A DNA stretch of 64,000 nucleotides from Dehalococcoides mccartyi (GTDB taxonomy: Bacteria; Chloroflexota; Dehalococcoidia; GIF9; DYGU01). Position 1 is the stretch's first letter. Every line of letters starts with the position of its first letter. This document shows positions 48,069 through 64,000 of the stretch, piece after piece. A program made the position numbers and the translations under genes. The notes under the pieces were generated by a model, which was not told the origin of the DNA, searched no databases, and saw only the letters and a list, made by a program, of their open reading frames with translations. The stretch covers positions 13,210 to 77,209 of the forward strand of contig DYGU01000006.1 of NCBI GenBank assembly GCA_020724525.1, written 5' to 3'.

Positions 48069-48169
48069 TGTGGTTGGAGGCGTATTTGGTCACACAAATA
48101 CCATAGCGCCCGAATTTGTGAACATTGACTTTCACCCTGTTATCTGGTAATTTAGCCACAAAGTAAATA

Positions 48170-48333
48170 ATGTTGTTGGGGTGCCCGAGGGTGACTGAGG
48201 GCTTAATTTGGTAGCAAGCCGGTGGGATTCCGGCGCAGTTCCGCTTGCTGTAACAGCCAGAACGCCAGCCCCGATAAACAAGACTGCCTCCGCGGAGTAA
48301 GGGGGTAGAGCTTATTTTTAAAAAGGCTCTTAA
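48170..48333 (+). promoter_or_regulatory. cobalamin (B12) riboswitch
   Basis: ggtgcccgagggtgactgagggcttaatttggtagcaagccggtgggattccggcgcagttccgcttgctgtaacagccagaacgccagcccc carries the conserved GGTGGAATTCC-like loop and GCGCAGTTCCGCTTGCTGTAA. The B12-box AGCCAGAACGCC is present. The region is nearly identical in core to the element at 57160. Confidence 0.75.
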
Positions 48334-48366
48334 ATCTCCTTGTTCCAAGGACAAGGAGATTTTTGT
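48334..48366 (+). terminator. intrinsic terminator (riboswitch expression platform)
   Basis: atctccttgt-tccaagg-acaaggagat has a 10-bp perfect stem followed by TTTTG. It lies just upstream of the btuC start. Confidence 0.55.
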
Positions 48367-48381
48367 TTAGTAATCGCCAAA

Positions 48382-49464
48382 ATGGCATTAAGCTTGTTCA
48401 AAAGTCTGATGATACCCAAAACCGCTTCGGTTTACCCCCTTAAGTGGCGAAATCGTCTCTATGCCTTAGTTGCTCTGGTATTTCTATCTGTTATCATCAT
48501 AGTCTTAGCTTCCAGTATAGGTAGCACCCAAGTTCCCTTCTCCACTGTCTGGGGCATTTTGCTTGACAGATTACCTTTGGTGAATCTAAACCCTGCCCGG
48601 GAGTCAGTTACAGAAACCATAGTGGCTGATATCCGTCTGCCCAGGGTAATTCTGGCAAGCCTTGTTGGCGCGGCTTTAGCTGTAGCTGGAGCTACCTATC
48701 AAGGATTATTTCGTAATCCTCTGGCTGACCCTTATCTTATCGGGGTAGCCCAGGGAGCCGCCCTGGGAGCTACTATCGGCTTTTTATTACCCTTGAGGGT
48801 AACCAGCTTAGAAGTTGTTCCGGTGTTTGCCTTCTGCGGCGCTCTTCTTGCCGTGGCTATTGTCTACAGCATTGCTCGGGTGGGCAAGACTTTACCCATC
48901 ACTACCCTTATTTTAGCTGGCGTGGCTCTGGGGGCTTTTTTAGCCTCCATTACTTCCTACCTGATAATCGCTTCAGGCGATAGACTACACGGCATAATCT
49001 CCTGGCTTTTGGGCAGGTTCTCTTTGAGCAACTGGGGGCAAGTAACAGCAGTAACACCTTATATTTTAATGGGTGTAGCCGTCATCTGGCTTTATGCTCG
49101 ACCTTTGAATATTATACAACTTGACGAAGAGCAAGCCCAGCAATTAGGAATAGATGTAGAAAGGGTCAAACTAATGTTACTGGTGGCAGCTACTTTGATT
49201 ACGGCTGCCGCGGTGTCTTTCTGTGGTACCATTGGCTTTGTCGGTATCATTGTGCCCCATGCCATTCGCCTCCTCTGGGGACCTGACTATCGCTTTCTAT
49301 TACCTCTATCTACCTTCGCCGGAGCTATCCTTCTGGTATTAGCCGATACCACAGCTCGAACTATCCTGGCACCGGCTGAGATTCCGGTAGGAGTGATTAC
49401 CGCTTTTTTAGGTGCTCCCTTCTTTCTCTACCTCCTGCGACAAAAGAAACGAGCTATATTTTAG
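48382..49464 (+). CDS. btuC: ABC transporter permease, FecCD/BtuC family (corrinoid/iron-siderophore type)
   Basis: 360 aa with ~9-10 TM helices. The start is moved to MALSLFKSL because the track start at 48340 lies inside the terminator hairpin. The gene sits downstream of the B12 riboswitch. Confidence 0.8.
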   Translation: MALSLFKSLMIPKTASVYPLKWRNRLYALVALVFLSVIIIVLASSIGSTQVPFSTVWGILLDRLPLVNLNPARESVTETIVADIRLPRVILASLVGAALAVAGATYQGLFRNPLADPYLIGVAQGAALGATIGFLLPLRVTSLEVVPVFAFCGALLAVAIVYSIARVGKTLPITTLILAGVALGAFLASITSYLIIASGDRLHGIISWLLGRFSLSNWGQVTAVTPYILMGVAVIWLYARPLNIIQLDEEQAQQLGIDVERVKLMLLVAATLITAAAVSFCGTIGFVGIIVPHAIRLLWGPDYRFLLPLSTFAGAILLVLADTTARTILAPAEIPVGVITAFLGAPFFLYLLRQKKRAIF

Positions 49465-49476
49465 AAAGGACTGTAG

Positions 49477-50295
49477 TTGTTTAACCTGAGATTAGACAAA
49501 ATTAGCCTTGGCTACGGCGACCGGACAGTGCTAAAAAATATTAGCTTAGAAGTTGAGCCCAGGCAGATGGTAGGTATTATTGGTCCCAACGGCTGTGGTA
49601 AGTCCACCCTGATTAAAGGGATAACCCGCTTGATATCCTGGCGCTCTGGAAACATATTTGCTGATGGTAAGAGCATTGCCAGGCTAAGCCGTAGCGATTT
49701 AGCCCGGCTTATAGCCGTAGTCCCTCAGAATGCTTTTCTGCCTGACTTATTTACCGCTTTTGAGGTAGTCTTAATGGGGCGAACGCCTCACCTCGGTTAT
49801 TTCCGCTATGAGAGCCATAAGGATATAACCATTACCAAAAGAGCTATGGAGGTTACTCAGACTATTGCCTTAGCTGAAAGAAGGATTGGTGAACTTTCTG
49901 GTGGCGAGAAACAGCGAGTCACCATTGCCCGGGCTTTAGCTCAAGAGCCAAAAGTTATTCTCCTTGATGAACCCACAGCCCATCTGGATATCAACTACCA
50001 GATAGAAATCCTTGACCTTGTTCGCAACCTATGCCAGGAGCGAGGACTGGTAACAATAATTGCTCTCCATGACCTTAATCTGGCTGCCCAATATTGTGGC
50101 CGCCTGATTCTGCTTCATAAAGGTAGGGTCTATCGTCAGGGTACCCCCCAAGAAGTAATTGATGCTCAAACCATTAAAGAGGTCTATGGAGCCCAGGTCA
50201 TGGTTTGTCCCCATCCCATTAATGAATTGCCAGCTACTTTTGTTGTGCCCGGGGGTCTGACAAGGACTAAAGAAGAAGTTAAGCCGATTGGATAA
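49477..50295 (+). CDS. btuD: ABC transporter ATP-binding protein (BtuD/FecE type)
   Basis: Walker A GPNGCGKST, signature LSGGEKQRV and Walker B ILLDEPT. Confidence 0.8.
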   Translation: MFNLRLDKISLGYGDRTVLKNISLEVEPRQMVGIIGPNGCGKSTLIKGITRLISWRSGNIFADGKSIARLSRSDLARLIAVVPQNAFLPDLFTAFEVVLMGRTPHLGYFRYESHKDITITKRAMEVTQTIALAERRIGELSGGEKQRVTIARALAQEPKVILLDEPTAHLDINYQIEILDLVRNLCQERGLVTIIALHDLNLAAQYCGRLILLHKGRVYRQGTPQEVIDAQTIKEVYGAQVMVCPHPINELPATFVVPGGLTRTKEEVKPIG

Positions 50296-51217
50296 TGCCT
50301 TAATTGTTCTTATCGCCTTGGTCATTGATATTAGCTTTGGCGAGCCACCCAACCGATGGCATCCAGTAGCCAGGCTGGGAAAGGCTATCTCATTAGAAAT
50401 GAAGCGGGCTCCGAAAGGGTCTAAAGCTCAATTAATCTATGGGATAGGCATGGTGATGATAACTTTAGTGGTCATTCTGGTACCAGTCTATTTTCTCCTT
50501 GTTTATCTGAAGCAAATGAGTTCAATAGCTTATGTTCTAATTGCGGCTATTCTGTTGAAGTTTACCTTCTCGTTTCGGGGGTTAGGACAGGCTGCACTAT
50601 ATGTCCGAAAACTATTGGCTCATGATAATCTGGAGCAAGCCCGAAGCCATTTATGCTCTTTGGTCAGTCGGGATACTACCTTTCTCAATAAGCAGCAAGT
50701 AGTATCAGCTACGGTGGAGTCAGTAGCTGAGAATACTTGTGATAGTTTTGTAGCTCCCCTTTTTTATTTCGTTTTCTTTGGCATTCCCGGAGCTGTGGCC
50801 TACCGTATAGTCAATACTTTTGATGCTATGATAGGTTATCACGGAAAATGGGAATATTTAGGGAAGTTTGCTGCTAAACTTGATGATCTCCTGAACTTTA
50901 TACCTGCTCGTTTAGCTGCCTCATATATAGTTATGTCTACCTGGGTGCAAGGTAATAACGCCTCACGAGCCTGGCGGATTATGTGGCGTGACCATGAGTT
51001 AACGGAAAGCCCTAATGCTGGTTGGACGATGGGTGCTGCTGCCGGCGCTTTGGCTGTCCAGCTGGAGAAGTTAGGATACTATCGTCTGGGTGATGACCAT
51101 AATCCCCTGACGGAGGAGACAATAGATTTCTCCCTCCATATTCTAACACTAGTGACTATTATGTGGAGCCTAACATGTTTATTAGCGGAGGTGGTACCGC
51201 TTGTCCTCGCCCCTTAA
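50288..51217 (+). CDS. cbiB: adenosylcobinamide-phosphate synthase (CbiB/CobD membrane protein)
   Basis: 309 aa integral membrane protein with the CbiB-family NRWHPVARLGK N-terminus. Confidence 0.8.
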   Translation: MDNALIVLIALVIDISFGEPPNRWHPVARLGKAISLEMKRAPKGSKAQLIYGIGMVMITLVVILVPVYFLLVYLKQMSSIAYVLIAAILLKFTFSFRGLGQAALYVRKLLAHDNLEQARSHLCSLVSRDTTFLNKQQVVSATVESVAENTCDSFVAPLFYFVFFGIPGAVAYRIVNTFDAMIGYHGKWEYLGKFAAKLDDLLNFIPARLAASYIVMSTWVQGNNASRAWRIMWRDHELTESPNAGWTMGAAAGALAVQLEKLGYYRLGDDHNPLTEETIDFSLHILTLVTIMWSLTCLLAEVVPLVLAP

Positions 51218-52310
51218 ACCAAAAATAACAGGGCTTAGGCCATGTCCTCATGGCGGCATTGACTATTTGGAGCTGGAGAGGTTAAAGATTTCTCCCGAAT
51301 CTGTAATTGATTTCAGCGTTAATTCAAATCCTTTTGGACCACCACCAGCAGTGACAAAGGCTTTAGCCGAAGTGGCTATTGACCGTTATCCTGATTCTGA
51401 GGCTATTGAACTGAGGCGAGCCTTAGCCACTAAATTAGGAGTGACTACAAACAATATCTTAGTAGGTAACGGCTCCATTGAGCTGGTCAGACTTGTGGCT
51501 CTGGCTTATCTCGAAAAAGGAGACTTAGTTCTTATTCCCCAACCTACCTTTGGCGAATATGAAGTTGCCTGCCGCCTTGCCGGTGCTCGATTGCTGAAAC
51601 CCTGGGCTGAGAGAGAGGTAAATTTTCGAATAAGGGTAGCTGGCCTTATTCACTTAATAAGACAGCATCAGCCTAAGGCTATTTTTTTAAGCAATCCCAA
51701 TAATCCTACCGGACAGTATCTCAGTAAAGAAGAGGTTGAGGAGCTGATCGACACAGCTAAAGACAGTCTGGTGGTAATAGACGAGGCTTATATAAACTTT
51801 GTGGATGATGGCTGGTGTTCTATAAATTTGATAAAGAAAGGTAATTTGCTTCTGTTACGGTCTATGACCAAGGACTATGCCCTGGCTGGGCTGCGTTTAG
51901 GTTATGTAGTAGCTGAAGAATCCATAATTTCCAGCTTGCGCCAAGTCCAATCTCCGTGGAGTGTCAATGTAGTAGCCCAGAGAGCGGGGCTTTTAGCTTT
52001 AAAGGAGGAAAGATATTTTGAGGCGTGCCGGAATGGAATCTGCGAAGCCCGGAATTTTCTGGTAACGGGGCTGACTTCCTTGGGTCTGCATCCATTACCG
52101 TCACAGTGTAATTTCTTTCTACTTGAAGTTGGTGGAGCTAAACAATTTCGGCAAGCGCTCTTGGAAAAAGGGATTCTGGTTCGTGATTGTACCTCTTTTG
52201 GTTTGCCTGAATACATTCGGTTAGCAGTGCAGACTTTGCCCCGGTGCCAGCGGCTGATTACGGTTATAAAGGAGTGTGGAATTTTATATAAATGTTGGCT
52301 AAGACATTAA
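51201..52310 (+). CDS. cobD: L-threonine-O-3-phosphate decarboxylase (class I/II aminotransferase fold, CobD/CobC type)
   Basis: 369 aa PLP-enzyme fold. The SMTKDYALAGLRLGY region provides the PLP lysine. It sits between cbiB and cobQ. Confidence 0.7.
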   Translation: MSSPLKPKITGLRPCPHGGIDYLELERLKISPESVIDFSVNSNPFGPPPAVTKALAEVAIDRYPDSEAIELRRALATKLGVTTNNILVGNGSIELVRLVALAYLEKGDLVLIPQPTFGEYEVACRLAGARLLKPWAEREVNFRIRVAGLIHLIRQHQPKAIFLSNPNNPTGQYLSKEEVEELIDTAKDSLVVIDEAYINFVDDGWCSINLIKKGNLLLLRSMTKDYALAGLRLGYVVAEESIISSLRQVQSPWSVNVVAQRAGLLALKEERYFEACRNGICEARNFLVTGLTSLGLHPLPSQCNFFLLEVGGAKQFRQALLEKGILVRDCTSFGLPEYIRLAVQTLPRCQRLITVIKECGILYKCWLRH

Positions 52311-53812
52311 TGGTCCAGGGCACGGCTTCGTTTGTGGGTAAAAGTGTTATAGTTGCCGCCTTATGTCGTATTTTTCGTCAGGATGGCTTTCGGGTTGCCC
52401 CATTTAAAGCCCAAAACATGGCTCTTAATTCTTATGTAACCAGGGAGGGTGGTGAAATCGGACGAGCCCAGGCAGTCCAGGCAGAAGCAGCCGGTATTGA
52501 GCCGACAGTGGATATGAACCCCATCCTCCTTAAACCTGAGACTGACTCCCGGTCACAGGTAGTTATTTTGGGTAAGGTAGCTAATAACCTCAAGGCTGAA
52601 GACTATTATCAATATACCCCCTACCTTCTAAAAATAGTTGAGGATTCCTTAGGCAGGTTACGGGCTAATTATGATATTGTGGTCATTGAAGGTGCCGGCA
52701 GCCCTGCCGAGATTAACTTAAAGAGACGGGAGATAGTCAATATGCGTCTTGCCCGCAGAGTCAGTGCCCCCGTTCTTCTGATAGGAGATATTGACCGAGG
52801 TGGTGTCTTTGCCTCCCTTGTGGGCACTCTCCGCTTACTCACCCCCAAGGAACGACGTTTAGTCAGGGGGCTCATTATTAATAAGTTTCGGGGCGACCCT
52901 AAATTGCTCAAACCAGGTCTAGAACTTCTGGAAAAATATACTGATAAACCGGTATTGGGAGTAATCCCTTATTTTCGCGGTATTACCATCGCCCAGGAGG
53001 ATTCCGTTTATTTAGAAGACAAAAACCAGGAATTCTTAATAAAAAAAGACGACTTGAATATAGCTATTATCCACTTGCCCCATATTTCTAATTATGATGA
53101 TTTCGACCCCCTTGAGGCTGAAGGTTGCCAAGTCAACTATATAAACAGTCCCCATCAGTTGATTAACCCGGATTTGATTATTTTACCGGGAACAAAGAGC
53201 ACTATTGCTGACCTGACTTTTCTGAAAGAGTCGGGCTTAGCCCAAGCTATTTTGGACTGTATAAAGGCGGGAACCCCAATGATAGGTATCTGTGGCGGCT
53301 ATCAAATGTTAGGAAAAAGCATCGCTGACCCTTATCATATAGGATCCCAATTGGAGGTAGCCTCCGGTTTAGGGATTCTTGAGGTCAATACTATTTTTGA
53401 CCGGAGAAAAAGAACAGTACAGGTAAAAGCTCAAGTAATTGGCGACAGTGGCTTACTCTCAGGATTGAAGGGTATGGAGGTCAGTGGCTATGAAATCTAT
53501 AAGGGGCAGACTATGTGGCAGGACTGTCCCCCAGCTTTCCAAGTTCTGGAAACACCCCAGGGAAAGGTAGACTATTTTGATGGGGCGATTGGTAACGACG
53601 GTTGGGTAATGGGTAGTTATCTTCATGGCTTATTCCATAATACTAATTTCACCCGAGGGTTATTGAATAAGTTACGACAAAGGCGGGGGCTGTCCCAAAG
53701 GACAGGAAGCTCATCCCTTAGCCGAGACGAGGAATATAATAGGTTAGCCCAAATAGTAAGACAGAATATTGATTTACCCCAAATTTACAGTATAGTTTTT
53801 GGAGGAGATTAA
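52292..53812 (+). CDS. cobQ: cobyric acid synthase
   Basis: 506 aa. The N-terminal DTB-synthetase-like P-loop domain is GTASFVGKS. The C-terminal GATase-1 domain is GICGGYQMLG...H. Confidence 0.85.
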   Translation: MLAKTLMVQGTASFVGKSVIVAALCRIFRQDGFRVAPFKAQNMALNSYVTREGGEIGRAQAVQAEAAGIEPTVDMNPILLKPETDSRSQVVILGKVANNLKAEDYYQYTPYLLKIVEDSLGRLRANYDIVVIEGAGSPAEINLKRREIVNMRLARRVSAPVLLIGDIDRGGVFASLVGTLRLLTPKERRLVRGLIINKFRGDPKLLKPGLELLEKYTDKPVLGVIPYFRGITIAQEDSVYLEDKNQEFLIKKDDLNIAIIHLPHISNYDDFDPLEAEGCQVNYINSPHQLINPDLIILPGTKSTIADLTFLKESGLAQAILDCIKAGTPMIGICGGYQMLGKSIADPYHIGSQLEVASGLGILEVNTIFDRRKRTVQVKAQVIGDSGLLSGLKGMEVSGYEIYKGQTMWQDCPPAFQVLETPQGKVDYFDGAIGNDGWVMGSYLHGLFHNTNFTRGLLNKLRQRRGLSQRTGSSSLSRDEEYNRLAQIVRQNIDLPQIYSIVFGGD

Positions 53813-54926
53813 CATGTCTGATTCTCTGGAGCGAATAATTAAGGCAATAAAGCCTCTTGATGAAGTTGCTATGGAAGCAGCCCGAAAACGCCAGGATAGC
53901 CTAACTAAGCCTCAGGGAAGTCTGGGTCGGCTGGAAGAACTATCTATCAAGACTGCTGGCATTAAAGCTGACCCTCTGCCTAAGCTCAAGCACAAGGCTA
54001 TCATTATCATGGTAGCCGACCATGGTGTGGTCGCTGAGAGCGTGAGTCTTTACCCCCAGGAGGTTACCCGACAGATGGTCCTTAATTTTCTTGAGGGTGG
54101 GGCGGGCATAAATGTTCTGGCAAGCCATGTCGGAGCTCGGGTAGTTATTGTGGATATGGGAGTAATTGGAGGTTTTCCACCACTCCCCGGGCTTGTATGT
54201 AAAATGATTGACTTTGGCACTAAAAATATGGCTAATGGACCAGCTATGTCCCGGGAACAAGCTTTAGACGCCCTTGAAGCTGGAATTAAAGTAGTTGAAG
54301 CTGAGATGGGCAAGGGACTTGATATTGTTGGTACTGGGGATATGGGCATCGGCAATACTACTGCCGCCAGTACTATTTGTGCTGCAATCACCGGGGAGCC
54401 AATAAAGAAGGTTACTGGACGGGGCACTGGCATTGGTGATAAACAGTTAGCCCATAAAATTGAAGTCATTAAGCGAGCTTTAGCCGTTAACCATCCTTCA
54501 GCCAGAGACCCCGTAGATGTTTTAGCCAAAGTTGGCGGCTTTGAAATTGGTGGTTTAGCCGGTGTCATTTTAGCCGCGGCTGCTTACCGCATTCCAGTAG
54601 TTATAGATGGCTTTATTTCCGGGGCTGCGGCTCTCATTGCTTCAGGACTATCACCCCGGGTAAAAGACTACCTCATTGCTGCCCACGTTTCGGCAGAGCC
54701 AGGACACGCCTTGCTCCTTAATTTCCTCGGCTTAAGACCTTTACTTAATCTGGAGATGCGTCTGGGGGAAGGGACTGGAGCTGCTTTAGGCATCTTCTTA
54801 GCTGAAGCCGCCACCAGGATTCTTACCGAAATGGCTACTTTTGCCGAAGCTGGTGTCTCAGAAGCCCAGCCAATTCCAGAAGATACTATCAAGAAATGGG
54901 GTCACCAAAAATCGCCGATTTTTTAG
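53799..54926 (+). CDS. cobT: nicotinate-nucleotide--dimethylbenzimidazole phosphoribosyltransferase
   Basis: 375 aa with CobT family motifs (GDMGIGNTTAASTI, GGFEIGGLAG). The start could be the Met at 53814. Confidence 0.85.
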   Translation: MEEINMSDSLERIIKAIKPLDEVAMEAARKRQDSLTKPQGSLGRLEELSIKTAGIKADPLPKLKHKAIIIMVADHGVVAESVSLYPQEVTRQMVLNFLEGGAGINVLASHVGARVVIVDMGVIGGFPPLPGLVCKMIDFGTKNMANGPAMSREQALDALEAGIKVVEAEMGKGLDIVGTGDMGIGNTTAASTICAAITGEPIKKVTGRGTGIGDKQLAHKIEVIKRALAVNHPSARDPVDVLAKVGGFEIGGLAGVILAAAAYRIPVVIDGFISGAAALIASGLSPRVKDYLIAAHVSAEPGHALLLNFLGLRPLLNLEMRLGEGTGAALGIFLAEAATRILTEMATFAEAGVSEAQPIPEDTIKKWGHQKSPIF

Positions 54927-54952
54927 GGGTAAAAGAAAGGTAGTAAGTAGTC

Positions 54953-55693
54953 TTGGGCTTTTGGGCTGCTGTCCGGTTTCTAACTATTTTCCCTACCCCA
55001 AAACGCTACAAAATAGAAGACAGGGAAATAGGTGCCTCCCTGACCTACTTTCCCCTAATAGGTTTAGGAATAGGAGCCATTCTAACAGGCTTGGACTATG
55101 GGTTAGGGTTATTGCTGCCCATGGCAGTGGTAAACGCCTTACTTATTTTAGTTCTGGCTATTGTCACCGGGGCTCTTCATCTTGACGGCTTCGTTGATAC
55201 CTGTGATGGTGTCATTAGCGGTAAAACGCCAGAAGAAAGGCTAACCATAATGAGAGACAGTCGCACTGGAGCCTTTGGAGTTATCGGAGCTTTTCTACTG
55301 CTACTGGTCAAATATGCTGCTTTAGTTTCTATCTCTGGGAAGTTAAGAATGCCTGCCCTCTTCCTTATGCCAGCTTTAGCCCGCTGGACTTTAGTTGGTG
55401 CTATTTTCTTTTTTCCTTATGCCAGAAGTTCAGGCATGGGGCTCCCTTTCAAACAAGGTGCTAGGAGAGTAAGGCTTATTCTGGCTACTGTCATAACTTT
55501 AGCTGCCTCCCTGGTTCTGCTAAAAGGGCTTGGACTGGTAATAATAATGTCTTTGGGGCTTATAATTTTGGGTATAGCCACCTACCTTCGTTCCCGGTTG
55601 GGAGGACTTACCGGCGATAGTTATGGGGCTATTAATGAAGCCTCCGAAGTAACCTTCTTAGTTTTACTAATCCTTTTTAGTCAGTGGCTATAA
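54953..55693 (+). CDS. cobS: cobalamin 5'-phosphate synthase (cobalamin synthase)
   Basis: 246 aa membrane protein with CobS motifs (LTIFP...DG.VD..DG). Confidence 0.85.
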   Translation: MGFWAAVRFLTIFPTPKRYKIEDREIGASLTYFPLIGLGIGAILTGLDYGLGLLLPMAVVNALLILVLAIVTGALHLDGFVDTCDGVISGKTPEERLTIMRDSRTGAFGVIGAFLLLLVKYAALVSISGKLRMPALFLMPALARWTLVGAIFFFPYARSSGMGLPFKQGARRVRLILATVITLAASLVLLKGLGLVIIMSLGLIILGIATYLRSRLGGLTGDSYGAINEASEVTFLVLLILFSQWL

Positions 55694-56265
55694 TGACTGA
55701 ACAGTTATTCTCTAAAAAGGTTACTTTTGTTCTCGGTGGGGCTCGCAGTGGCAAAAGTTATTTTGCCCAAAAGTTAGCCAGGAAACTGGGAAAAAAGGTG
55801 CTCTTTGTGGCTACCGCTGAGCCTCTGGATAAAGAGATGCAAGCCCGTATTGAGGAGCATAAGAAGTTGCGTCCTTCTTACTGGCGAACCCTTGAAATAG
55901 CCAGTGGCATAGCCGGGGAAATAGAGACTCAGTCTGGCGATGCCGAAGTAGTGGTTGTGGACTGCCTGACTCTGCTTGTTTCCAATATCGTGACCAAAAA
56001 CTCTGACTATAACCAGGCAGAAAAACGGGTGATAGCCGAAATTAATGAGCTCATTAACTGCCTGGACAGACTCAATGCCAGCTTTATTATTGTTTCCAAT
56101 GAAGTGGGGCTGGGCATAGTGCCCGAAAACGAGCTGGCACGCTTTTACCGCGACCTCTTAGGTAAAGTCAACCAGCTTATCAGCCAGAAAGCCGATGAAG
56201 TCTATTTCATGGTTGCCGGCATTCCACTGAAAATAAAAGGGGAGCCCTCACCAACCAAAAGTTGA
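55684..56265 (+). CDS. cobU: bifunctional adenosylcobinamide kinase / adenosylcobinamide-phosphate guanylyltransferase
   Basis: 193 aa. The P-loop GGARSGKS and the CobU family length are present. Confidence 0.85.
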   Translation: MAIMTEQLFSKKVTFVLGGARSGKSYFAQKLARKLGKKVLFVATAEPLDKEMQARIEEHKKLRPSYWRTLEIASGIAGEIETQSGDAEVVVVDCLTLLVSNIVTKNSDYNQAEKRVIAEINELINCLDRLNASFIIVSNEVGLGIVPENELARFYRDLLGKVNQLISQKADEVYFMVAGIPLKIKGEPSPTKS

Positions 56266-56289: not shown

Positions 56290-56441
56290 CACCCCTCTGC
56301 CTTTCGTAAATACAGTCTGTCTCTTCAATGAACCACTGCCGACCGACCTTTGTTCCTTTAATTCGACCTTTCCTGAGTAATCGCTGAAGCCATTGTTTGA
56401 CTTATCCCAAATCTTTTGGCTGCCTCTTTAGCGGTTATCAT
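56290..56441 (-). pseudogene. excisionase/HTH_17-family DNA-binding gene remnant with a 1-nt frameshift
   Basis: The minus strand reads ATG MITAKEAAKRFGISQT. The next frame continues WLQRLLRKGRIKGTKVGRQWFIEETDCIYERQRG. This is the typical excisionase motif (..VKEAA..LGVS..TIYRL...G.I...K.GR.W.I). Confidence 0.4.
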
Positions 56442-56548: not shown

Positions 56549-56833
56549 TTAAGGTTGAGCTTTAAGGACTTGCCTTGTCTTTTCTGATTCTGAGACAACT
56601 AGCTGGGCCAGGTATTTTATAGCCTCAGCCATTTCTTTTCTTGCCTCACTCTGTCCTTGTTCTATTCTAATGAGTATTTCTCTTAGCTCTTTTCTTGTCT
56701 CGATATGTCCCTCTTCCATTCTGGTGAGAATTTTTCTTGTGTTTCTTCCATTTATTATGGCATAAACTGTAATGAATGCACCTAAAATGGTTGACATAGT
56801 CCCGGCTAAAGCCAATAGTTCCCAGAGACTCAT
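56549..56833 (-). CDS. small single-pass membrane protein with coiled-coil repeats (paralog 4 of 4)
   Basis: 94 aa with the TM helix LWELLALAGTMSTILGAFITVYAII. The helical repeats are TRMEEGHIETRKELREILIRIEQGQSEARKEMAEAIKYL. A bidirectional hairpin, agccaaccttaatcaggttggct, lies downstream. Confidence 0.5.
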   Translation of the reverse strand: MSLWELLALAGTMSTILGAFITVYAIINGRNTRKILTRMEEGHIETRKELREILIRIEQGQSEARKEMAEAIKYLAQLVVSESEKTRQVLKAQP

Positions 56834-57159
56834 CTCACACCTCCATTTCCGTTTCCTGCTTCTATCAACCCTTATATCTTTTTAATCTGCTACCTCCAGT
56901 TTAGGAAACTGAATAGGGGCTGTCAAGGCAGTAGCTTTAATAAATTTGTCTACGCACGTTCTCAGGCTCCTTTTGGGCTGAAGTATATTGACTTTAGTAA
57001 TACTCGGTCTTCCCATGGGTAAAAAGGGCATAGATTAAAAAGCTTAATTTGAGGTCTAGCCTTATAAGTTCCCTTAAAGTCAACGCCTGCTTCAACAGGG
57101 CTTGACTTTTTCACTGGTTCTGCTATACTAACCACAAAATAAAATAAATTGTTTAGGTT

Positions 57160-57312
57160 GAGGTGCCCGAGGGCAATCGAGGGCTTAATGGGAAAGCAAG
57201 CTGGTGGAATTCCGGCGCAGTCCCGCTTGCTGTAACAGCCAGAACGCCTGCCTCAACAACAATAACCACCTCCGCGGAGTCAGGGGGCAGGGTTTTTTAG
57301 TTAGCTTCTAAA
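57160..57312 (+). promoter_or_regulatory. cobalamin (B12) riboswitch
   Basis: ggttgaggtgcccgagggcaatcgagggcttaatgggaaagcaagctggtggaattccggcgcagtcccgcttgctgtaacagccagaacgcctgcctcaac has a closed P1 stem (ggttgagg...cctcaac). The AATGGGAA, GGTGGAATTCC and GCAGTCCCGC motifs are present. The B12 box AGCCAGAACGCCTGCC is present. Confidence 0.8.
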
Positions 57313-57346
57313 ATCCCTCTACCGCTGTGGTGGAGGGATTTTTTAA
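57313..57346 (+). terminator. intrinsic terminator (riboswitch expression platform)
   Basis: aatccctctacc-gctgt-ggtggagggatt followed by TTTTTA. It lies 24 nt before the btuF start. Confidence 0.5.
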
Positions 57347-57369
57347 TGCCAAAAAGAAGGAGATTATTA

Positions 57370-58376
57370 TGAAACAGTACCTTAGAATCTTCTTGACTCT
57401 ACTAATAACAGTGGGGCTAATATTCTCTTCAGTCATTTCCTGTGCCCCAGCCCCACCAGAAATTAAACCACCACCGCCACCCCCCATAGAAAAACCAAAG
57501 CCACCGGAACCGGAAAAACCGCTACCCCCACCTATGTTCCCGGTGACCGTCACCGATGACCTGGGCAAAAAGATAACCCTGGAGAAACCACCCCAGCGAA
57601 TAGTCTCCCTGTCTCCAAGTAATACCGAAATCCTTTTTGCCTTAGGTCTCGGGAATAAAATAGTTGGTGTTACCTCTTTCTGCAATTATCCCGATGAAGC
57701 CAGAACCAAGCCAAGGATAGGTGGTTTTCACCCTCCTGATATTGAAAGGGTGGTTGCTCAGAAACCAGATTTGATATTGGCTGCTAAAATCCATGAAAAG
57801 ACAGTCGTCCCCCCGTTAGAAAGATTAGGCTTGACCGTTTTAACTATGTCTCCCAAGACCCTTGAGGGAATACTTAAAAATATTACCCTGATAGGAGATG
57901 TCACCGGCAAAAGTCAGGAAGCGGCTGCTTTGGTGGCTAAGCTAAACGAGAGAATTAAAGTTGTTACTACCAAAACAGAAAAGCTAACCAGCGAGCAATA
58001 CCTCCGAGTCCTTTATGTTATCTGGCATGACCCAATATGGACAATGGGACGAGATAACTTCCAGAATGATTTAATTCAAAAAGCTGGTGGCAGAAATATC
58101 TTTGCCCCAGATTTCCCCGAGTGGCGCATTGTTTCCCTGGAAGAAATCCTTACCCGAAATCCTCAGATAATCATTGTCAGCGGCATGGGAGCGACACGGG
58201 GGCTTATTTTTAGCTCCATAAAGAATGAGCCAAGATTAGCCGCCACTGAAGCCCTGACTAAGGGGAAAATTTATGAAATTGAGGGCGACCTTATTGAACG
58301 GCCTGGACCAAGGATAGTAGAAGCTTTAGAACAATTAGCCGGGTTTATCCATCCGGAAATATTTGGCTCTCAATGA
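57370..58376 (+). CDS. btuF: periplasmic/surface-anchored substrate-binding lipoprotein, BtuF/FhuD-type (corrinoid-binding)
   Basis: The start is moved to MKQYLRIFLTLLITVGLIFSSVISCA, a signal peptide plus lipobox Cys. The AAGGAGA Shine-Dalgarno-like sequence lies 8 nt upstream. The signal peptide is followed by a Pro-rich linker PPEIKPPPPPPIEKPKPPEPEKPLPPP. A class III periplasmic-binding-protein fold follows. Confidence 0.8.
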
Positions 58377-61300
58377 AGCTAAAACTCTGGCAATATTGTC
58401 TCATCACCATATTTTTCTTCACCTCTATTATTATTGCCGCCAGCCCATCAGGGCACTCCCAGCTGGTGGCAGCCGATAGCCCAGCCCTCCAGTGGCTCCG
58501 CCTTAACACACCACAAAATGGTGCTCCCGGGCACTATGTTTTAATGAATAACTCTGAGGTTAGTCGTATTGCTGTCAGCAATGATAACAAGACCATTTAT
58601 GCCTTGGATAACTGGAACACACGGCTCTATAAATCTAACGATGCTGGCTATACTTGGCAAGACTTGACCACACGTCTTAATGCTGCTCCCGGGCTTCCCG
58701 GTGCCTACACTGCTTTAGTCGCATTAGCTACCCCGCCTGATGACCCCAATTTTGTGGCTGTCGCCGGGACCGCTGGCGGTATTAAAGCTGTCTCTATCTC
58801 CGCTGACGGTGGCATTAACTGGGGCTACACTGGTCCCCTCCCCACGACTGTTCTAGGCACTATCAGGTCCCTTGATGTGGCTAAAGCCATCCCTGGTGGT
58901 CTTGGCATCATTCGCAACATAGCTGTCAGCACTGCTAATGATATTGCTGGTGGCACCGTTGCCCGACTTGAGTTCGGTAGCATTGGTGGCTGGGTGGATA
59001 CCTTTGTTGCTTACCCTGGGGCTACAGCCTCCGATGTCACCGCTATAAAGTTCTCGCCCAACTTCCTCATTGACCGGACACTCTTAGCCGTCTGTCAGAC
59101 AGCTACCCGAAGTATCTTGCAAGCGGCTAACTTTGGTGCTGCTCCCATCTGGAACACTACTTACACAGGCTATCCCATTAACATTGATTATCCACCAGGC
59201 ACGGCTACCCCCAATGCTACTCAGATAATAACTTCAGATATGGCTTTGCCTTCTGATTATATAGGGACTAACCCGTCCCGGCGCCGCGTCTATATCGGTT
59301 TTAATGCTACAGGTGGTATCAGAGATGCCTTCCGTATTGATAATACCAGCGTTTTCCGCCTCAATGTTCTTGATGGTGCTAATATTGACTTGACCAGCAT
59401 TGCTTATTATGGCACCTATGATTCAGGCAAGCTTTTAGCCGGAAGAACTGATGGTATAGGTATAGAAACTCAGGTATACCGCACTTTTAACCCCCAGTCC
59501 CGCCTCCCAGACTGGAAAACCTCGGCTAAGCCACCCACTGGTCCCGGGAAAGCTTTCGTCCGCTGGGCACCAGATGGCAAGAGCGCTTTTTGCGGCACCA
59601 GCGGTGTTGGCGCTAATGATGAATCGGCTTTTTCCCGAAGCATTGATGCTGGTCTTAGCTGGAACCAGACTGGAATTATTGATACTGTCATTAACCGGAT
59701 TAATCACCTGGAACCATCGCCTAATGGCGACACCTTATTTATGACCACCATTAATGTTGGGGCAGCTAATGCCGATAGTCTATGGCGAAGTATCAATCCA
59801 ATAATGGGTAAATGGGAGCGAGTCCTGGCTCGCAGTAGCACCGGTACTGGTGACAATCCCCGGGCAAAAGTAGCACCGGATTATGCCGATACCAAGATCG
59901 TCTGGTTTATCAGCTTTGATATTTCCCTGAGTACCCAGCAATTACTCGTTTCCTATGATGGCGGTAATACCTTTGAAGCTCGGGCAAGCAATATCGTTCT
60001 AATTGACCTGGCGGTAGAAGACAAGAATACTCTTTACGGTCTTAACGCCTCTGGTGCTGTCAGCAAAAGTGTTGATGGTGGCTGGACCTGGCAGACACCA
60101 GTCATGACTGGACTTGACAATGGTTATAGTATTACTACCGCCTACACTGGTTCCACACCTGACAATGATAAAGGCAAGGTTATAGTTGGCGGCACCGGCA
60201 CTGGCAACTACGATGTTGCTTACTCTATTGATGGAGGTGCCACTTTTACCTCTATCCCCCTGCCCCTGCCAGCTCCTCGAGGCAATACCTTAGTCCTTGC
60301 CAGTTCGGGCTACAAGATGGATGGTACCATTTTAGCCATGACTGCCGATGGGATCTATGCCTGGGGAATTTATGCCGGGAAAAATGTCTGGGAACAATGG
60401 GGATTCACTTCCTGGGGAGGCTGGGATTACGGATTTAGATTTACTGGGATAGTAATCTTCCGCAATTATACTGCTTATGCTTCTACCCTTCGGACATTAC
60501 CCTGGGGCACCAATGGTGTCGGACGCTGGTTCTATCCCAACCTCCTGGCTAACCTTGACCCTGACGTTTCATTCCAGGCACAACCTCGAGGGCTTAAGCT
60601 TTCTGGTGGGCTGGAAGCTAATCAGCCGGTAGTTTTATGGGCAGCCGACACCCGTGCCTACAACCCACCTCAAGGTGGTGTCTGGTATTATGCCGATACC
60701 CTTATCTGGCTCGGTCCACCTCCCGCTGAGCCGGTAAGTCAAGCTATAATTGAATATGACCCGGTAACAGGAAGGGCTGGAGGAATTTTTCTCAAATGGC
60801 AGCCCCGCTCCTTAGCCGATGGCTATCAAATTCAAATCGCTGTAGACGAAGATTTCGCCGCTCTAATTACTGATATTGGTCGCTTTCCCTACTACTATCC
60901 CCACGACCCATTACAGCCAACTTTGCTTTTGCCGGCTGGTGGGGGCACCATCACTGACAGGAAAGGTAATTCCTGGGCAATCCCCGCCTTACCAGCGGGC
61001 AAGACTTACTACTGGCGAGTTCGAGTCCGGAGTACCATTTATGGTGATTCCCTGATGAGCCCCTGGTCCTGGCGGGAAAGCCTCGCCGTCAAGACCGGGG
61101 TGCCAGTAAGGTCTCCCTCACCCGGTTTACTTATTCTTAGCCCCAAAATCGGCGCCACTGATGTCCCTCCCACCCCTGCCTTCTCTTGGATACCTTCCCC
61201 CGGGACTACTAAATATGAGTTTGTCCTATACCGGGATGCAGCTCTAACTGATATTATAGTTAAAGCCATCATCCCCACCTCAGCCTGGCTTTACCCCGGC

Positions 61301-61540
61301 AAGCTTGAGCCGGGTAAAACTTACTTCTGGCAGGTAAGAGCCATAGAACCAGCTTTTAGTGATTGGAGTGCCATCGGCGTTTTTACCACTACCGAGGAGG
61401 CCACATCTAAAGCAACTCAACCTTTACCCACACCACAGCAACCTAAAATACCTCCCTGGATATGGCTAACTATAGTACTCTTCGGGCTAACCTGGGGCCT
61501 CGTGCTCATTTTGTTCCTCAAATCCCGCCATTGGCTATAA
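58373..61540 (+). CDS. large secreted BNR/Asp-box beta-propeller protein with FN3-like modules and a C-terminal TM anchor
   Basis: 1055 aa with an N-terminal signal peptide. At least six Asp-box repeats are present (SNDAGYTWQDL, SADGGINWGY, SIDAGLSWNQ, SYDGGNTFEA, SVDGGWTWQT, SIDGGATFTS). C-terminal GKTYYWRVRVRS and GKTYFWQVRA motifs are typical of FN3-like domains. The final helix is IWLTIVLFGLTWGLVLILFL. Its start overlaps the btuF stop by 4 nt. Confidence 0.7.
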   Translation: MKLKLWQYCLITIFFFTSIIIAASPSGHSQLVAADSPALQWLRLNTPQNGAPGHYVLMNNSEVSRIAVSNDNKTIYALDNWNTRLYKSNDAGYTWQDLTTRLNAAPGLPGAYTALVALATPPDDPNFVAVAGTAGGIKAVSISADGGINWGYTGPLPTTVLGTIRSLDVAKAIPGGLGIIRNIAVSTANDIAGGTVARLEFGSIGGWVDTFVAYPGATASDVTAIKFSPNFLIDRTLLAVCQTATRSILQAANFGAAPIWNTTYTGYPINIDYPPGTATPNATQIITSDMALPSDYIGTNPSRRRVYIGFNATGGIRDAFRIDNTSVFRLNVLDGANIDLTSIAYYGTYDSGKLLAGRTDGIGIETQVYRTFNPQSRLPDWKTSAKPPTGPGKAFVRWAPDGKSAFCGTSGVGANDESAFSRSIDAGLSWNQTGIIDTVINRINHLEPSPNGDTLFMTTINVGAANADSLWRSINPIMGKWERVLARSSTGTGDNPRAKVAPDYADTKIVWFISFDISLSTQQLLVSYDGGNTFEARASNIVLIDLAVEDKNTLYGLNASGAVSKSVDGGWTWQTPVMTGLDNGYSITTAYTGSTPDNDKGKVIVGGTGTGNYDVAYSIDGGATFTSIPLPLPAPRGNTLVLASSGYKMDGTILAMTADGIYAWGIYAGKNVWEQWGFTSWGGWDYGFRFTGIVIFRNYTAYASTLRTLPWGTNGVGRWFYPNLLANLDPDVSFQAQPRGLKLSGGLEANQPVVLWAADTRAYNPPQGGVWYYADTLIWLGPPPAEPVSQAIIEYDPVTGRAGGIFLKWQPRSLADGYQIQIAVDEDFAALITDIGRFPYYYPHDPLQPTLLLPAGGGTITDRKGNSWAIPALPAGKTYYWRVRVRSTIYGDSLMSPWSWRESLAVKTGVPVRSPSPGLLILSPKIGATDVPPTPAFSWIPSPGTTKYEFVLYRDAALTDIIVKAIIPTSAWLYPGKLEPGKTYFWQVRAIEPAFSDWSAIGVFTTTEEATSKATQPLPTPQQPKIPPWIWLTIVLFGLTWGLVLILFLKSRHWL

Positions 61541-61814: not shown

Positions 61815-62162
61815 TCAATACTTTGTCTCTTTATTGAGAATTTCTTCAATTTGTGGTATGAGTTCTGGCAATTCTTGTTTAACTTGCCAGATAACATCAT
61901 ATTTAATGCCAAAATAGTGGTGGATTAGTTTATCCCGTAATCCGGCAAGTTCCTTCCACGGAATTTGTGGATATTTCTTTTTTCAATTGGCAGATATGCT
62001 TTTTGTAGCCTCTCCCACAACTTCAAGGTTTCGAATCATAGCATCTTGAGTTTTTCTGTCTTGCATAAACCCCTCATAAGTTAATCCCTCAGTGTAAATA
62101 ATTATTCTCTCTATAGCCTCTTTAATGTCACCAAGGTAGTCTTTGTCTCTTCTTTTAGACAT
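61815..62162 (-). pseudogene. hepT: HepT/DUF86 HEPN-family toxin with an in-frame TGA
   Basis: Hand translation gives MSKRRDKDYLGDIKEAIERIIIYTEGLTYEGFMQDRKTQDAMIRNLEVVGEATKSISAN. A TGA follows at 61983..61985. It then reads KKKYPQIPWKELAGLRDKLIHHYFGIKYDVIWQVKQELPELIPQIEEILNKETKY. This is collinear with the intact paralog at 62627..62974. The ATGTCTAA overlap with the upstream MNT gene is typical. Confidence 0.6.
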
Positions 62163-62508
62163 AAATCAAACTCTTTTTGATATCCTCGGCAATATGCTTA
62201 TATCTTGGATTGCTAAAACTTCTTTCCAAGCACTCAAAGGTGGCAACATCCACTTTTCTGCCCAGTGATTCTTCAAGGTAATATGCCAGTTTTACAAATC
62301 CAAGACCTAAAGGTTTTTTGAGTTCTATAAGAATGTCTATATCACTTCTTCCCCTTTGTAAACCCCTGGCAAAGGAGCCGAAGATACATATTCTTTCTAC
62401 TCCATATTCATCCCTTAAATAGGGGAGCTCTTTCCTGAGAGCTTCGATAACACTTTCTTTTGTAAGTATTCTTTTCATAGCTACCATTATCCCCAACCTT
62501 AAAACCAT
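62155..62508 (-). CDS. mntA: MNT-type minimal nucleotidyltransferase antitoxin
   Basis: 117 aa. The ICIFGSFARGLQRGRSDIDILIE motif matches GS..RG....SD.D. Confidence 0.75.
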   Translation of the reverse strand: MVLRLGIMVAMKRILTKESVIEALRKELPYLRDEYGVERICIFGSFARGLQRGRSDIDILIELKKPLGLGFVKLAYYLEESLGRKVDVATFECLERSFSNPRYKHIAEDIKKSLIYV

Positions 62509-62626
62509 TATAACATGTTGAGGAACTCAAGCAATTTATCGCGGGAGTCGTAGAGCACAAGTTCGGGGAATTTCTCGGACCCCGTGATTTGGGGATATAG
62601 CTAACAGAGGAAATCAAAGGGAGGAC

Positions 62627-62974
62627 TTATTTCTCGTGCAGGTCTTCTAATACTTTTTGCATTAGTGGTTTCAGTGCCGGAATATCTTGCTTGATGGTAT
62701 CCCAAACTACCTTCAAATTGATACCAAAGTATTCGTGAATTAATTTATCTCTCATACCTGCGGCATCTTTCCAGGGTATTTGGGGATAACGATTCTTTAC
62801 CGAGCGAGATATTCTTTTGGCTGCTTCCCCAATAACTTCTAAAGCCCTTACCACCGCAAAGATAGTTTTATCATCTTTTATGAAATCGTTGTATTCCATA
62901 CCTTGTGTAAACTGTTGTATCTTTGATAGAGCGTCTATTACGTCTTCGATATAATCTAAGGACTCTCGCTTCAA
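62627..62974 (-). CDS. hepT: HepT/DUF86 HEPN-family toxin
   Basis: 115 aa. The R.KLIHEY(H) HEPN Rx4-6H-like motif is present (MRDKLIHEYFG). Confidence 0.75.
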   Translation of the reverse strand: MKRESLDYIEDVIDALSKIQQFTQGMEYNDFIKDDKTIFAVVRALEVIGEAAKRISRSVKNRYPQIPWKDAAGMRDKLIHEYFGINLKVVWDTIKQDIPALKPLMQKVLEDLHEK

Positions 62975-63351
62975 ATATTTATTACCTCGGTCAAAATGCG
63001 TTGTCCTATCCTTGGCTTTAAAGCGTCTTTCATAACTAAGTCAACTTTAATGCCTATAATTTCGCTCAGGTAATTTTCCAAATTAATAAACTTAAGAAGG
63101 CTTATTGGTTCATCAAACTCCACTAAAATATCTAAATCACTTCTCCTTTTAGGCTCACCCCTAACATAAGAACCAAATATTCCAATCTCCCTAACTTTGT
63201 ACCTCTGTCTCAATACTTCCTTAGACTCGGCTAAGATACTTTTTATTTCTTCAAGGGTCTTCATATTTCTGACCACCAAATTAAGGTTCTTCCTTAGACC
63301 CATTATAACATTCTCTTTGTGGTAGGAATATAGACAAAAAGGGAAAGGCAA
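62971..63351 (-). CDS. mntA: MNT-type minimal nucleotidyltransferase antitoxin
   Basis: 126 aa. The IGIFGSYVRGEPKRRSDLDILVEF motif is present. It overlaps the downstream hepT by 4 nt. Confidence 0.75.
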   Translation of the reverse strand: MPFPFCLYSYHKENVIMGLRKNLNLVVRNMKTLEEIKSILAESKEVLRQRYKVREIGIFGSYVRGEPKRRSDLDILVEFDEPISLLKFINLENYLSEIIGIKVDLVMKDALKPRIGQRILTEVINI

Positions 63352-63412
63352 AGCTATAATCAGTCTGTGGTTTCACTACCTCAGCCTCAAGTCCTTTTTA
63401 CTCAGGAAGAAA

Positions 63413-63916
63413 TTAAGAAAGCTGTCCAGCGGCTGGCTTTGGATTATTCGTGGCAAGCCAAGAAATGGGAACGACAGAAGCCATTTCGAGTTGGATAAGC
63501 TCTGGGTCACCTGTTACAATAGTTGCTCCTTTAAGTTTAGCCAAAGCTACAGCAAAGCAGTCCGCATAAGCTACAGACCAGTGTGCCTTAATATGGGCAG
63601 CAGCTAAGGTCTGGGCTCGGTTAGCGTCAACGATTTCAACCGGGAGTTCGTCAATGCGGGCTAAAGCTTCTTGGGCTTTTGGTAGTCCCCGCTCCCGTTC
63701 CGTTATGTATAAAACCTCCCCCAGGTTAACAATGCTCATAAACAAACGGCAGTGTCCGTGAAAAGCTTCCTCCAAGAGCTGCCTTACCCTCTCCTGCCCA
63801 GCTTCGTCACCAAAAAAGGCGAGAAGGGCATAGCTATCAAGAACAAAGCGCTCTGGCTCTAATTTATTTCCCTTTACTAAGGTCTTCTTTTCGGGACTGA
63901 AGAAGCGCCTGGACAA
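63413..63916 (-). CDS. vapC: PIN-domain (VapC-type) toxin
   Basis: The PIN N-terminal acidic motif is FVLDSYALLAFF. A D/E-containing conserved core follows. The annotated TTG start at 63916 probably over-extends into the upstream antitoxin. The true start is likely closer to 63840. Confidence 0.6.
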   Translation of the reverse strand: MSRRFFSPEKKTLVKGNKLEPERFVLDSYALLAFFGDEAGQERVRQLLEEAFHGHCRLFMSIVNLGEVLYITERERGLPKAQEALARIDELPVEIVDANRAQTLAAAHIKAHWSVAYADCFAVALAKLKGATIVTGDPELIQLEMASVVPISWLATNNPKPAAGQLS

Positions 63917-63918
63917 GA

Positions 63919-64000
63919 GAAGTATTGCCCTTCAGCATACCTGCCGCGGCATCTAAAGGGCTTTTGGAAACAGGTACAATAGCTATTACCCCACCATAAT
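63919..64000 (-). CDS. partial VapB-like antitoxin (5' end outside window)
   Basis: The minus-strand frame reads ...IAIVPVSKSPLDAAAGMLKGNTSLVQALLQSRKEDLSKGK*. It ends 2 nt before the vapC region. Confidence 0.35.

Follow-up and report, generated by a model that had tools for sequence, protein, structure and literature searches.

Conserved linkage of a DET1407-type beta-propeller protein to btuF and cobalamin riboswitches in Dehalococcoidia suggests a surface accessory of corrinoid uptake

A riboswitch, btuF and a large surface-protein gene

The window analyzed here is a stretch of 64,000 nucleotides (nt) of contig DYGU01000006.1 (assembly GCA_020724525.1, labeled Dehalococcoides mccartyi), and positions given without a locus handle count from its first letter. 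On its forward strand it carries a cobalamin riboswitch (57144-57269), a btuF-like gene for a substrate-binding lipoprotein of 335 residues (57369-58376), and a gene for a surface protein of 1055 residues (58373-61540) belonging to the btuF-linked clade of the DET1407-type BNR/Asp-box family. The sequence-only reading of this DNA had put the large protein forward as a candidate for corrinoid capture at the cell surface. The interpretation that we favor, with a chance slightly better than even, is that of a corrinoid-repressed two-gene operon, which furnishes BtuFCD uptake with a surface accessory.

The riboswitch aptamer scores 44.0 bits with the Rfam model RF00174 (gathering score, 31.5; E = 8.7e-08). 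It is a short form of 126 nt, whose alignment skips about 70 positions of the Rfam model; the custom covariance model R1, built from nine aptamers with this one in its training set, scores it at 129.6 bits. About 15 nt 5' of the aptamer, a consensus scan finds a sigma-70-like promoter (57102-57129; TTGACT-16 nt-TG-TATACT), which as a pattern match only agrees with the consensus at 10 of 12 positions and has the TG extension in addition. RNA folds of the expression platform (57314-57344) yield an 11-base-pair GC-rich hairpin (TCCCTCTACCG-CTG-TGGTGGAGGGA, 57314-57338), which is followed by T6 in the DNA, i.e., the U6 tract of an intrinsic terminator. The AAGGAG ribosome-binding site and the btuF ATG at 57369 come next. 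Riboswitch and terminator are hence predicted to constitute a corrinoid-responsive OFF switch, and the earlier claim of a complete cobalamin riboswitch with its own terminator ahead of btuF is upheld.

The BtuF-like product, supported by Pfam, NCBIfam, and gene callers, contains a Peripla_BP_2 domain (PF01497; residues 78-306; 125.9 bits against a cut-off of 27.5, E = 2.1e-36). It is preceded by a signal peptide, the lipobox V-I-S-C, and, after the lipobox Cys, a tether with 18 Pro in 34 residues (residues 25-58), in keeping with the lipoprotein on a poly-Pro tether that had been described before. While the listed open reading frame (ORF) begins at 57327, the ATG at 57369 following AAGGAG is the likelier start, and the resulting 335 residues also agree with the gene calls made on four public contigs of identical sequence (one from the metagenome-assembled genome (MAG) GCA_020725225.1), on which both genes are called identically. 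The product does not reach the NCBIfam BtuF equivalog NF002894 (124.5 bits against a cut-off of 234, E = 3.9e-36), and its best NCBIfam match, a PGF-CTERM binding-protein model, likewise stays under its own cut-off. Its probable B12 specificity is instead deduced from the riboswitch and from the preceding operon on the same strand (btuC-btuD-cbiB-cobD-cobQ-cobT-cobS-cobU; 48163-56265). That operon starts with the first cobalamin riboswitch of the window (48163-48287; Rfam, exactly at the gathering score) and codes for BtuCD and cobinamide-salvage enzymes with no btuF of its own. The btuF stop codon (58374-58376) and the ATG of the large gene (58373) share the 4-nt overlap ATGA (58373-58376), as had been noted earlier, which implies translational coupling of the two genes.

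The large protein begins with a signal helix (residues 2-22) that lacks a lipobox. This leads into a tandem beta-propeller region (residues ~40-780; 58490-60712) with six Asp-boxes at residues 88, 143, 423, 527, 566, and 618, and then into two FN3/Ig-like domains (residues ~785-905 and ~920-1006; 60725-61390), a Pro/Thr/Gln-rich stalk, and a C-terminal transmembrane (TM) helix (residues 1028-1054; 61454-61534) seen in both the sequence and the secondary structure of the model. An AlphaFold2 model based on 33 homologs (mean predicted local distance difference test score, pLDDT, 84; predicted template-modeling score, pTM, 0.76) has around 13-14 four-stranded blades in the propeller region, as counted from its strand list, and low-confidence linkers between and after the FN3/Ig-like domains. 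The latter domains are additionally backed by matches to the Pfam models Ig_Rha78A_N and Pur_ac_phosph_N and to cytokine-receptor FN3 domains in the PDB. In the profile libraries, the protein as a whole obtains weak matches to Ig_Rha78A_N, Sortilin-Vps10, BNR, and BNR_2 of Pfam and to the 'F510_1955 family glycosylhydrolase' of NCBIfam, with every family score below its curated cut-off. The model thus depicts a type I membrane-anchored ectodomain with tandem propellers borne on an FN3 stalk. The predicted presence of at least six Asp-boxes, FN3-like modules, and a C-terminal membrane anchor agrees with this architecture, whereas the single 7- or 8-bladed propeller envisaged over residues 40-700 gives way to tandem propellers.

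Conserved linkage to btuF and cobalamin riboswitches

To place the locus in a comparative context, one genome per GTDB species was scanned, which yielded 379 stretches encoding relatives of the large protein; the best 80 of these were kept and correspond to 77 distinct loci, all from MAGs of Dehalococcoidia/Chloroflexota. A 45%-identical homolog (P0015) bears the source label 'Bacteroidota bacterium' and probably comes from a mis-binned contig of 3.7 kb. Genes for BtuF were located by tblastn with the BtuF of the window, and riboswitches with Rfam and R1; a strict B12-box regular expression was too narrow, recovering the motif upstream of btuF in one related locus only. Exactly 22 of the 77 loci have a same-strand btuF gene directly upstream of the large gene, and the remaining 55 have none; the 22 are those in which the large protein shares 35% or more identity with that of the window. 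Cobalamin riboswitches follow the same partition (R1; 22/22 btuF-linked loci, 0/55 paralog loci), and the homologous aptamers, as located by Rfam and R1, sit at the equivalent position. In a neighbor-joining tree of 72 family members, the 21 alignable btuF-linked proteins group in a single clade from which all 51 paralogs are excluded. The large gene and btuF constitute a conserved unit in otherwise unrelated neighborhoods: cob/btuCD genes occur upstream of the pair in four loci only (L001, L005, L007, L040), and in L084 and L085 the pair is found, riboswitch in place, among housekeeping genes (proS, ispG, pheST). In eight genomes, a btuF-linked copy coexists with one or more unlinked paralogs, which indicates that the linked gene is an extra, specialized copy.

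The most informative feature is where the riboswitches sit, which varies among the linked loci. In 13 of the 22, the spacer between btuF and the large gene measures 233-446 nt and holds a second complete aptamer, so that the large gene has a riboswitch of its own; L007 has the spacer riboswitch only, because its btuF is appended to a cob operon. Short spacers (-9 to 144 nt), with both genes sharing the upstream riboswitch, are seen in seven loci and in the window. The long spacers contain a riboswitch except in L010 and in L013, the latter having an inserted ORF of 288 residues with a radical-SAM-like CxxxCxxC motif (L013, 3072-3938), which fills the gap and overlaps the btuF stop codon. Hairpins followed by a U tract, resembling terminators, lie 3' of 12 of the 13 riboswitches preceding the large gene (one example of which was folded) and 21 of the 22 preceding btuF (33/35 overall).

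These arrangements bear on the possibility that the large gene has no functional link to B12 and merely happens to be read through from btuF. Within the window alone, its co-regulation could indeed be a by-product of the 4-nt overlap. But the 13 dedicated spacer riboswitches, set between separated genes and nearly all trailed by a terminator-like hairpin, point to B12-responsive control that is independent of co-transcription with btuF, and the linkage is clade-wide while being absent from all paralogs. We accordingly consider mere read-through, to which we accord a very slight probability, to be strongly disfavored. Whatever the gene arrangement, the large gene appears to have been kept by selection under a corrinoid-sensing OFF switch. 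Its membership in the B12 regulon, which the sequence-only reading had deduced from the riboswitch leader and the operon, is well supported by the comparative sequence data, with riboswitch and btuF found throughout the clade and in no paralog locus.

The related aptamers score 31.7-44.1 bits in Rfam (clan CL00101), and some match RF01689 (AdoCbl-II) better than RF00174. Cases in point are both aptamers of the window and those of L004, L013, and L040, which are short (~126 nt) or best matched by RF01689; this bears on the corrinoid form that they would sense.

In the window, the reverse strand has an ORF of 94 residues (56549-56833), situated after the cob operon and ahead of the second riboswitch, that is called on all four public contigs and lacks a Pfam match; its product has an N-terminal hydrophobic segment and a charged helical tail, and the ORF has a terminator-like hairpin of its own (56528-56502). 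The same strand also contains a 27-residue fragment (56358-56441; MITAKEAAKRFGISQTMASAITQERSN) resembling what is left of a helix-turn-helix or excisionase-type gene. Immediately beyond the large gene, the reverse strand (61900-64000) bears two HepT-like/nucleotidyltransferase (HEPN-MNT) toxin-antitoxin pairs and a PIN/MazE-AbrB pair. Together, the 27-residue remnant and the toxin-antitoxin genes hint at decayed mobile DNA flanking the btuF unit.

Kinship with a putative S-layer protein and a clade-specific C-terminal half

An exhaustive search retrieves 400 cluster representatives (50% identity) at E ≤ 1e-30, and the database relatives of the large protein are all unnamed hypothetical proteins. 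For comparison with the best-studied member of the family, a DET1407-type gene was recovered by scanning metagenome contigs with the back-translated form of a published peptide (YFGNQWNQTA). The protein so identified (L083) is similar in size (1035 residues) and displays the same order of elements, namely signal peptide, Asp-box propellers, FN3 domains, and C-terminal membrane helix, as well as the same Pfam signature. It aligns over its full length with the family profile (hhalign 99.9%, E = 2.4e-32, 918 columns), and the BLASTP identity between the family of the window protein and the DET1407 type is 22-27%. By descent, then, the 1055-residue protein is a specialized paralog within the Dehalococcoidia DET1407-type BNR/Asp-box family of putative surface-layer (S-layer) proteins. 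Consequently, the contrast that had been drawn between it and a 'generic S-layer' protein does not hold, for it is a full-length homolog of just such a putative S-layer protein. It nevertheless differs from the DET1407 type in falling in a separate clade with residues and insertions of its own. Moreover, the two fetched loci of the DET1407 type have neither btuF nor a detectable riboswitch, and expression of the window protein is predicted to be repressed by corrinoid, not constitutive and abundant. It is only for the D. mccartyi protein that high abundance has been reported (PMC6646388, PMC5102406). According to a remark in PMC5102406, which cites Rowe et al. 2015, the D. mccartyi S-layer gene is preceded by a riboswitch; this was not reproduced in L082 and L083, where no Rfam family reaches gathering and R1 finds no match.

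The unlinked paralogs (L020-L077) lie in divergent orientation next to type IV pilus/type II secretion genes in about 22 of the 55 loci, the pilus genes in question being those for T2SSE, T2SSF, and prepilins (e.g., L053 2860-5726, L033 4201-5873, L070 2865-3398). A gene for a CARDB-domain protein is found upstream, on the same strand, in 16 paralog loci.

To delineate what sets the btuF-linked clade apart, residues were scored as clade-specific in the 72-member alignment if 90% or more of the linked clade kept them and no more than 15% of the paralogs had the same residue. There are 40 such residues, all within residues 448-998 (59714-61366) and densest between 549 and 902, i.e., in the second propeller and the FN3 domains, with none in the N-terminal propeller. 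Among them are three clade-specific insertions at 590-601 (AYTGsTPDNDKG), 681-683 (W..G), and 858-865 (G...D..G). Although the clade-specific residues are enriched in Trp, we do not read this as a sign of a binding site, because Trp is equally over-represented at the family-wide invariant positions. A comparable division of the protein emerges from four linked loci (L010, L012, L017, L040) with a second family copy downstream: the tandem copies are alike in the N-terminal half and 20-40% identical beyond residue 500. The copies of L040 (4065-7367 and 11355-14555), which are 93% and 77% identical over residues 300-500, show a pattern suggestive of either gene conversion or a recent, partial duplication affecting the N-terminal propeller. 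The family hence looks modular, its members sharing the N-terminal propeller and varying in the half that is nearer the anchored C-terminus in sequence. This half looks to have gained a conserved new surface in the btuF-linked clade. Eight btuF-linked loci (L003, L008, L010, L012, L016, L017, L040, L063) also encode, downstream of the large gene and on the same strand, a He_PIG 'putative Ig' protein of ~650-740 residues with a TM segment and a Pro-rich tail of its own. Where present, this protein may be a third surface component under B12 control; the window lacks it.

The foregoing features give rise to the main rival of our interpretation, namely that the large protein is a coat isoform made under B12 starvation, or a docking scaffold. 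It would replace or intercalate with the housekeeping S-layer-family protein and make room for, position, or stabilize BtuF and perhaps other induced surface proteins, all without binding corrinoids. The full-length homology to and shared architecture with the DET1407-type protein favor such a role, as do an N-terminal propeller devoid of clade-specific residues, which fits a common assembly function, and the extra surface-protein genes downstream in eight linked loci. With the S-layer ancestry and these downstream genes the isoform or scaffold is equally compatible. However, a new specific interaction is indicated by the 40 clade-specific residues together with the three insertions. A molecule of ~1.4 kDa can generally pass the pores of an S-layer, and remodeling of the coat for access alone thus seems needless. 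On this evidence we regard the isoform or scaffold as unlikely, though deserving of serious attention.

The fold searches raise two further alternatives. In a Foldseek search against the PDB, GH74 xyloglucanases, which likewise have tandem seven-bladed Asp-box propellers, rank first (e.g., 5JWZ, 7KN8, 2CN2; E = 2e-16 to 1e-12). They are followed by sensor domains of Bacteroides hybrid two-component systems and sortilin-type Vps10 domains (9-14% identity), with sortilin/SorCS2 and the receptor ectodomains of Sevenless and ROS1 among the further matches. The large protein could on this account be a co-regulated BNR-type glycoside hydrolase, GH74-like or sialidase-like, that, for instance, frees corrinoids from polymer-bound forms. 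The top rank of GH74 (E ~1e-16) and the weak F510_1955 and BNR_2 matches speak for this. Yet the GH74 identity is just 13-14%, with template-modeling scores (TM-scores) of 0.25-0.37, indicating a likeness at the level of the fold only. In the PDB profile search, moreover, the matches to GH74 are local, covering one or two Asp-box blades and falling on non-equivalent blades. Given also that the family scores stay below the curated cut-offs, that the window protein adds FN3 domains and a membrane anchor, that carbohydrate genes were not found nearby, and that an abundant structural protein is its closest relative to have been studied, we judge an enzymatic role to be highly improbable.

The receptor-like matches are in line with a starvation-induced adhesin, whose ectodomain would bind corrinoid-producing partners (methanogens, acetogens) or particles and thereby bring an auxotroph near its source. 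The type I build of propellers and FN3 domains is common in adhesins and receptors, and induction is predicted only at low corrinoid, which would suit this role. Even so, the strict adjacency to btuF in all 22 linked loci is more naturally understood as a direct partnership with the binding protein, and we rate the adhesin as improbable, if less so than the hydrolase.

A proposed role in corrinoid acquisition

We propose that the corrinoid-repressed operon with a surface accessory of BtuFCD uptake would operate as follows. When corrinoid is plentiful inside the cell, the aptamer would bind it, the terminator would form, and both genes would be off. When it is scarce, both genes would be transcribed, with the 4-nt overlap coupling their translation. 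BtuF, held at the membrane on its ~35-residue Pro-rich tether, would deliver corrinoid to the BtuCD made from the neighboring riboswitch-controlled operon. The 1055-residue protein would be exported, held by its C-terminal helix, and raised on the FN3 stalk. It would then most likely capture or concentrate corrinoids within the protein coat and pass them to the tethered BtuF, the hand-over proceeding via the clade-specific surface of the second propeller and first FN3 domain. The parts of this proposal differ in strength. That the protein aids corrinoid acquisition at the cell surface as an accessory we consider probable. That it binds corrinoids directly is a more tentative suggestion, with the chances somewhat against it. 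We are similarly hesitant about the specific version in which an S-layer-family copy has turned into a corrinoid receptor that binds its ligand through the second propeller and FN3 domains and hands it over to the tethered BtuF.

Two further considerations count for a role in corrinoid acquisition. First, the window supplies BtuCD and the salvage enzymes from an operon without any other btuF. In comparison with a canonical BtuFCD importer, the components themselves (riboswitch, btuF-like binding protein, and btuCD) are all present and ordinary, while btuF is split from btuCD and coupled instead to the surface-protein gene. Second, there is the precedent of BtuG of Bacteroidetes, a seven-bladed surface propeller with femtomolar B12 affinity (PMC6143338; PMC10404256), whose discovery came from linkage of this kind to B12 loci under riboswitch control and whose binding of B12 was demonstrated afterwards (PMC6143338). 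The window protein resembles BtuG in being a surface beta-propeller protein encoded in riboswitch-controlled B12 transport loci, in having been recognized by the same kind of conserved linkage, and in its proposed role of surface capture and transfer to a transporter. It departs from BtuG in that no sequence homology between the two was found by Pfam and PDB profile searches. BtuG is a single propeller on an outer-membrane lipoprotein that partners the TonB-dependent transporter BtuB, whereas the window protein combines tandem propellers with FN3 domains, is anchored by a TM helix, and would partner BtuF; B12 binding, shown for the former, is putative for the latter. A btuB gene was not found in the window neighborhood. 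Cultured Dehalococcoidia lack an outer membrane, a statement that holds for the cultured members, the DNA of the window being from a MAG. We thus see BtuG as the closest functional precedent of the window protein, which, going by the sequence and fold searches, is not a BtuG-family member and is DET1407-type by descent. BtuH (DUF4465) and BtuJ offer a further parallel as accessory surface proteins with Ig-like modules in Bacteroides B12 uptake loci (PMC8941943, PMC13398666, bioRxiv 10.1101/2025.07.01.662609). They belong, however, to another phylum with another envelope, and DUF4465 is absent among the Pfam matches of the window protein at E ≤ 1.

Several observations weigh against the proposed capture function. 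A structural role in the S-layer is ascribed to the best-studied family member (PMC6646388, PMC5102406), which makes a purely structural role plausible here too, and the He_PIG proteins and second family copies downstream fit envelope remodeling as well as capture. No B12-binding domain of a known kind was recognized in the large protein, with Pfam, NCBIfam, and PDB sequence searches returning only BNR, sortilin, and FN3. Nor was a specific structural likeness to BtuG found by Foldseek among the best matches listed: BtuG (BtuG2 = PDB 3DSM) is not one of them, and is missing from the PDB profile search as well, though its rank in a top-50 list would not be decisive, as any seven-bladed propeller resembles many others. 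The 336-nt spacer of L010 (2614-2950) has no detectable riboswitch even with filters off. Finally, all of the evidence comes from MAGs.

Our literature search found no cobalamin-riboswitch-controlled Asp-box/BNR or S-layer-family protein, save for the unreproduced remark in PMC5102406. What would be new here is plausibly an accessory surface protein of B12 uptake loci from an unrelated family and in a different envelope, related kinds being known in BtuG and BtuH. Cultured Dehalococcoidia, among them the organohalide respirers employed in bioremediation, need cobamide enzymes for respiration and are auxotrophic for corrinoids. To our knowledge, BtuFCD is the only understood part of their scavenging of cobamides at environmental concentrations, and we know of dedicated surface capture proteins shown only in Bacteroidetes. 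Through its pairing with btuF in at least 22 related species, the 1055-residue protein presents a concrete, clonable candidate for the missing step of corrinoid collection. If this is true, a protein of the S-layer family would have been recruited to nutrient uptake, and surface capture of the BtuG type would have been independently invented in a bacterium without an outer membrane. In metatranscriptomes from anoxic sediments and aquifers, transcripts of the large gene could, in addition, be used to recognize that corrinoid is limiting.

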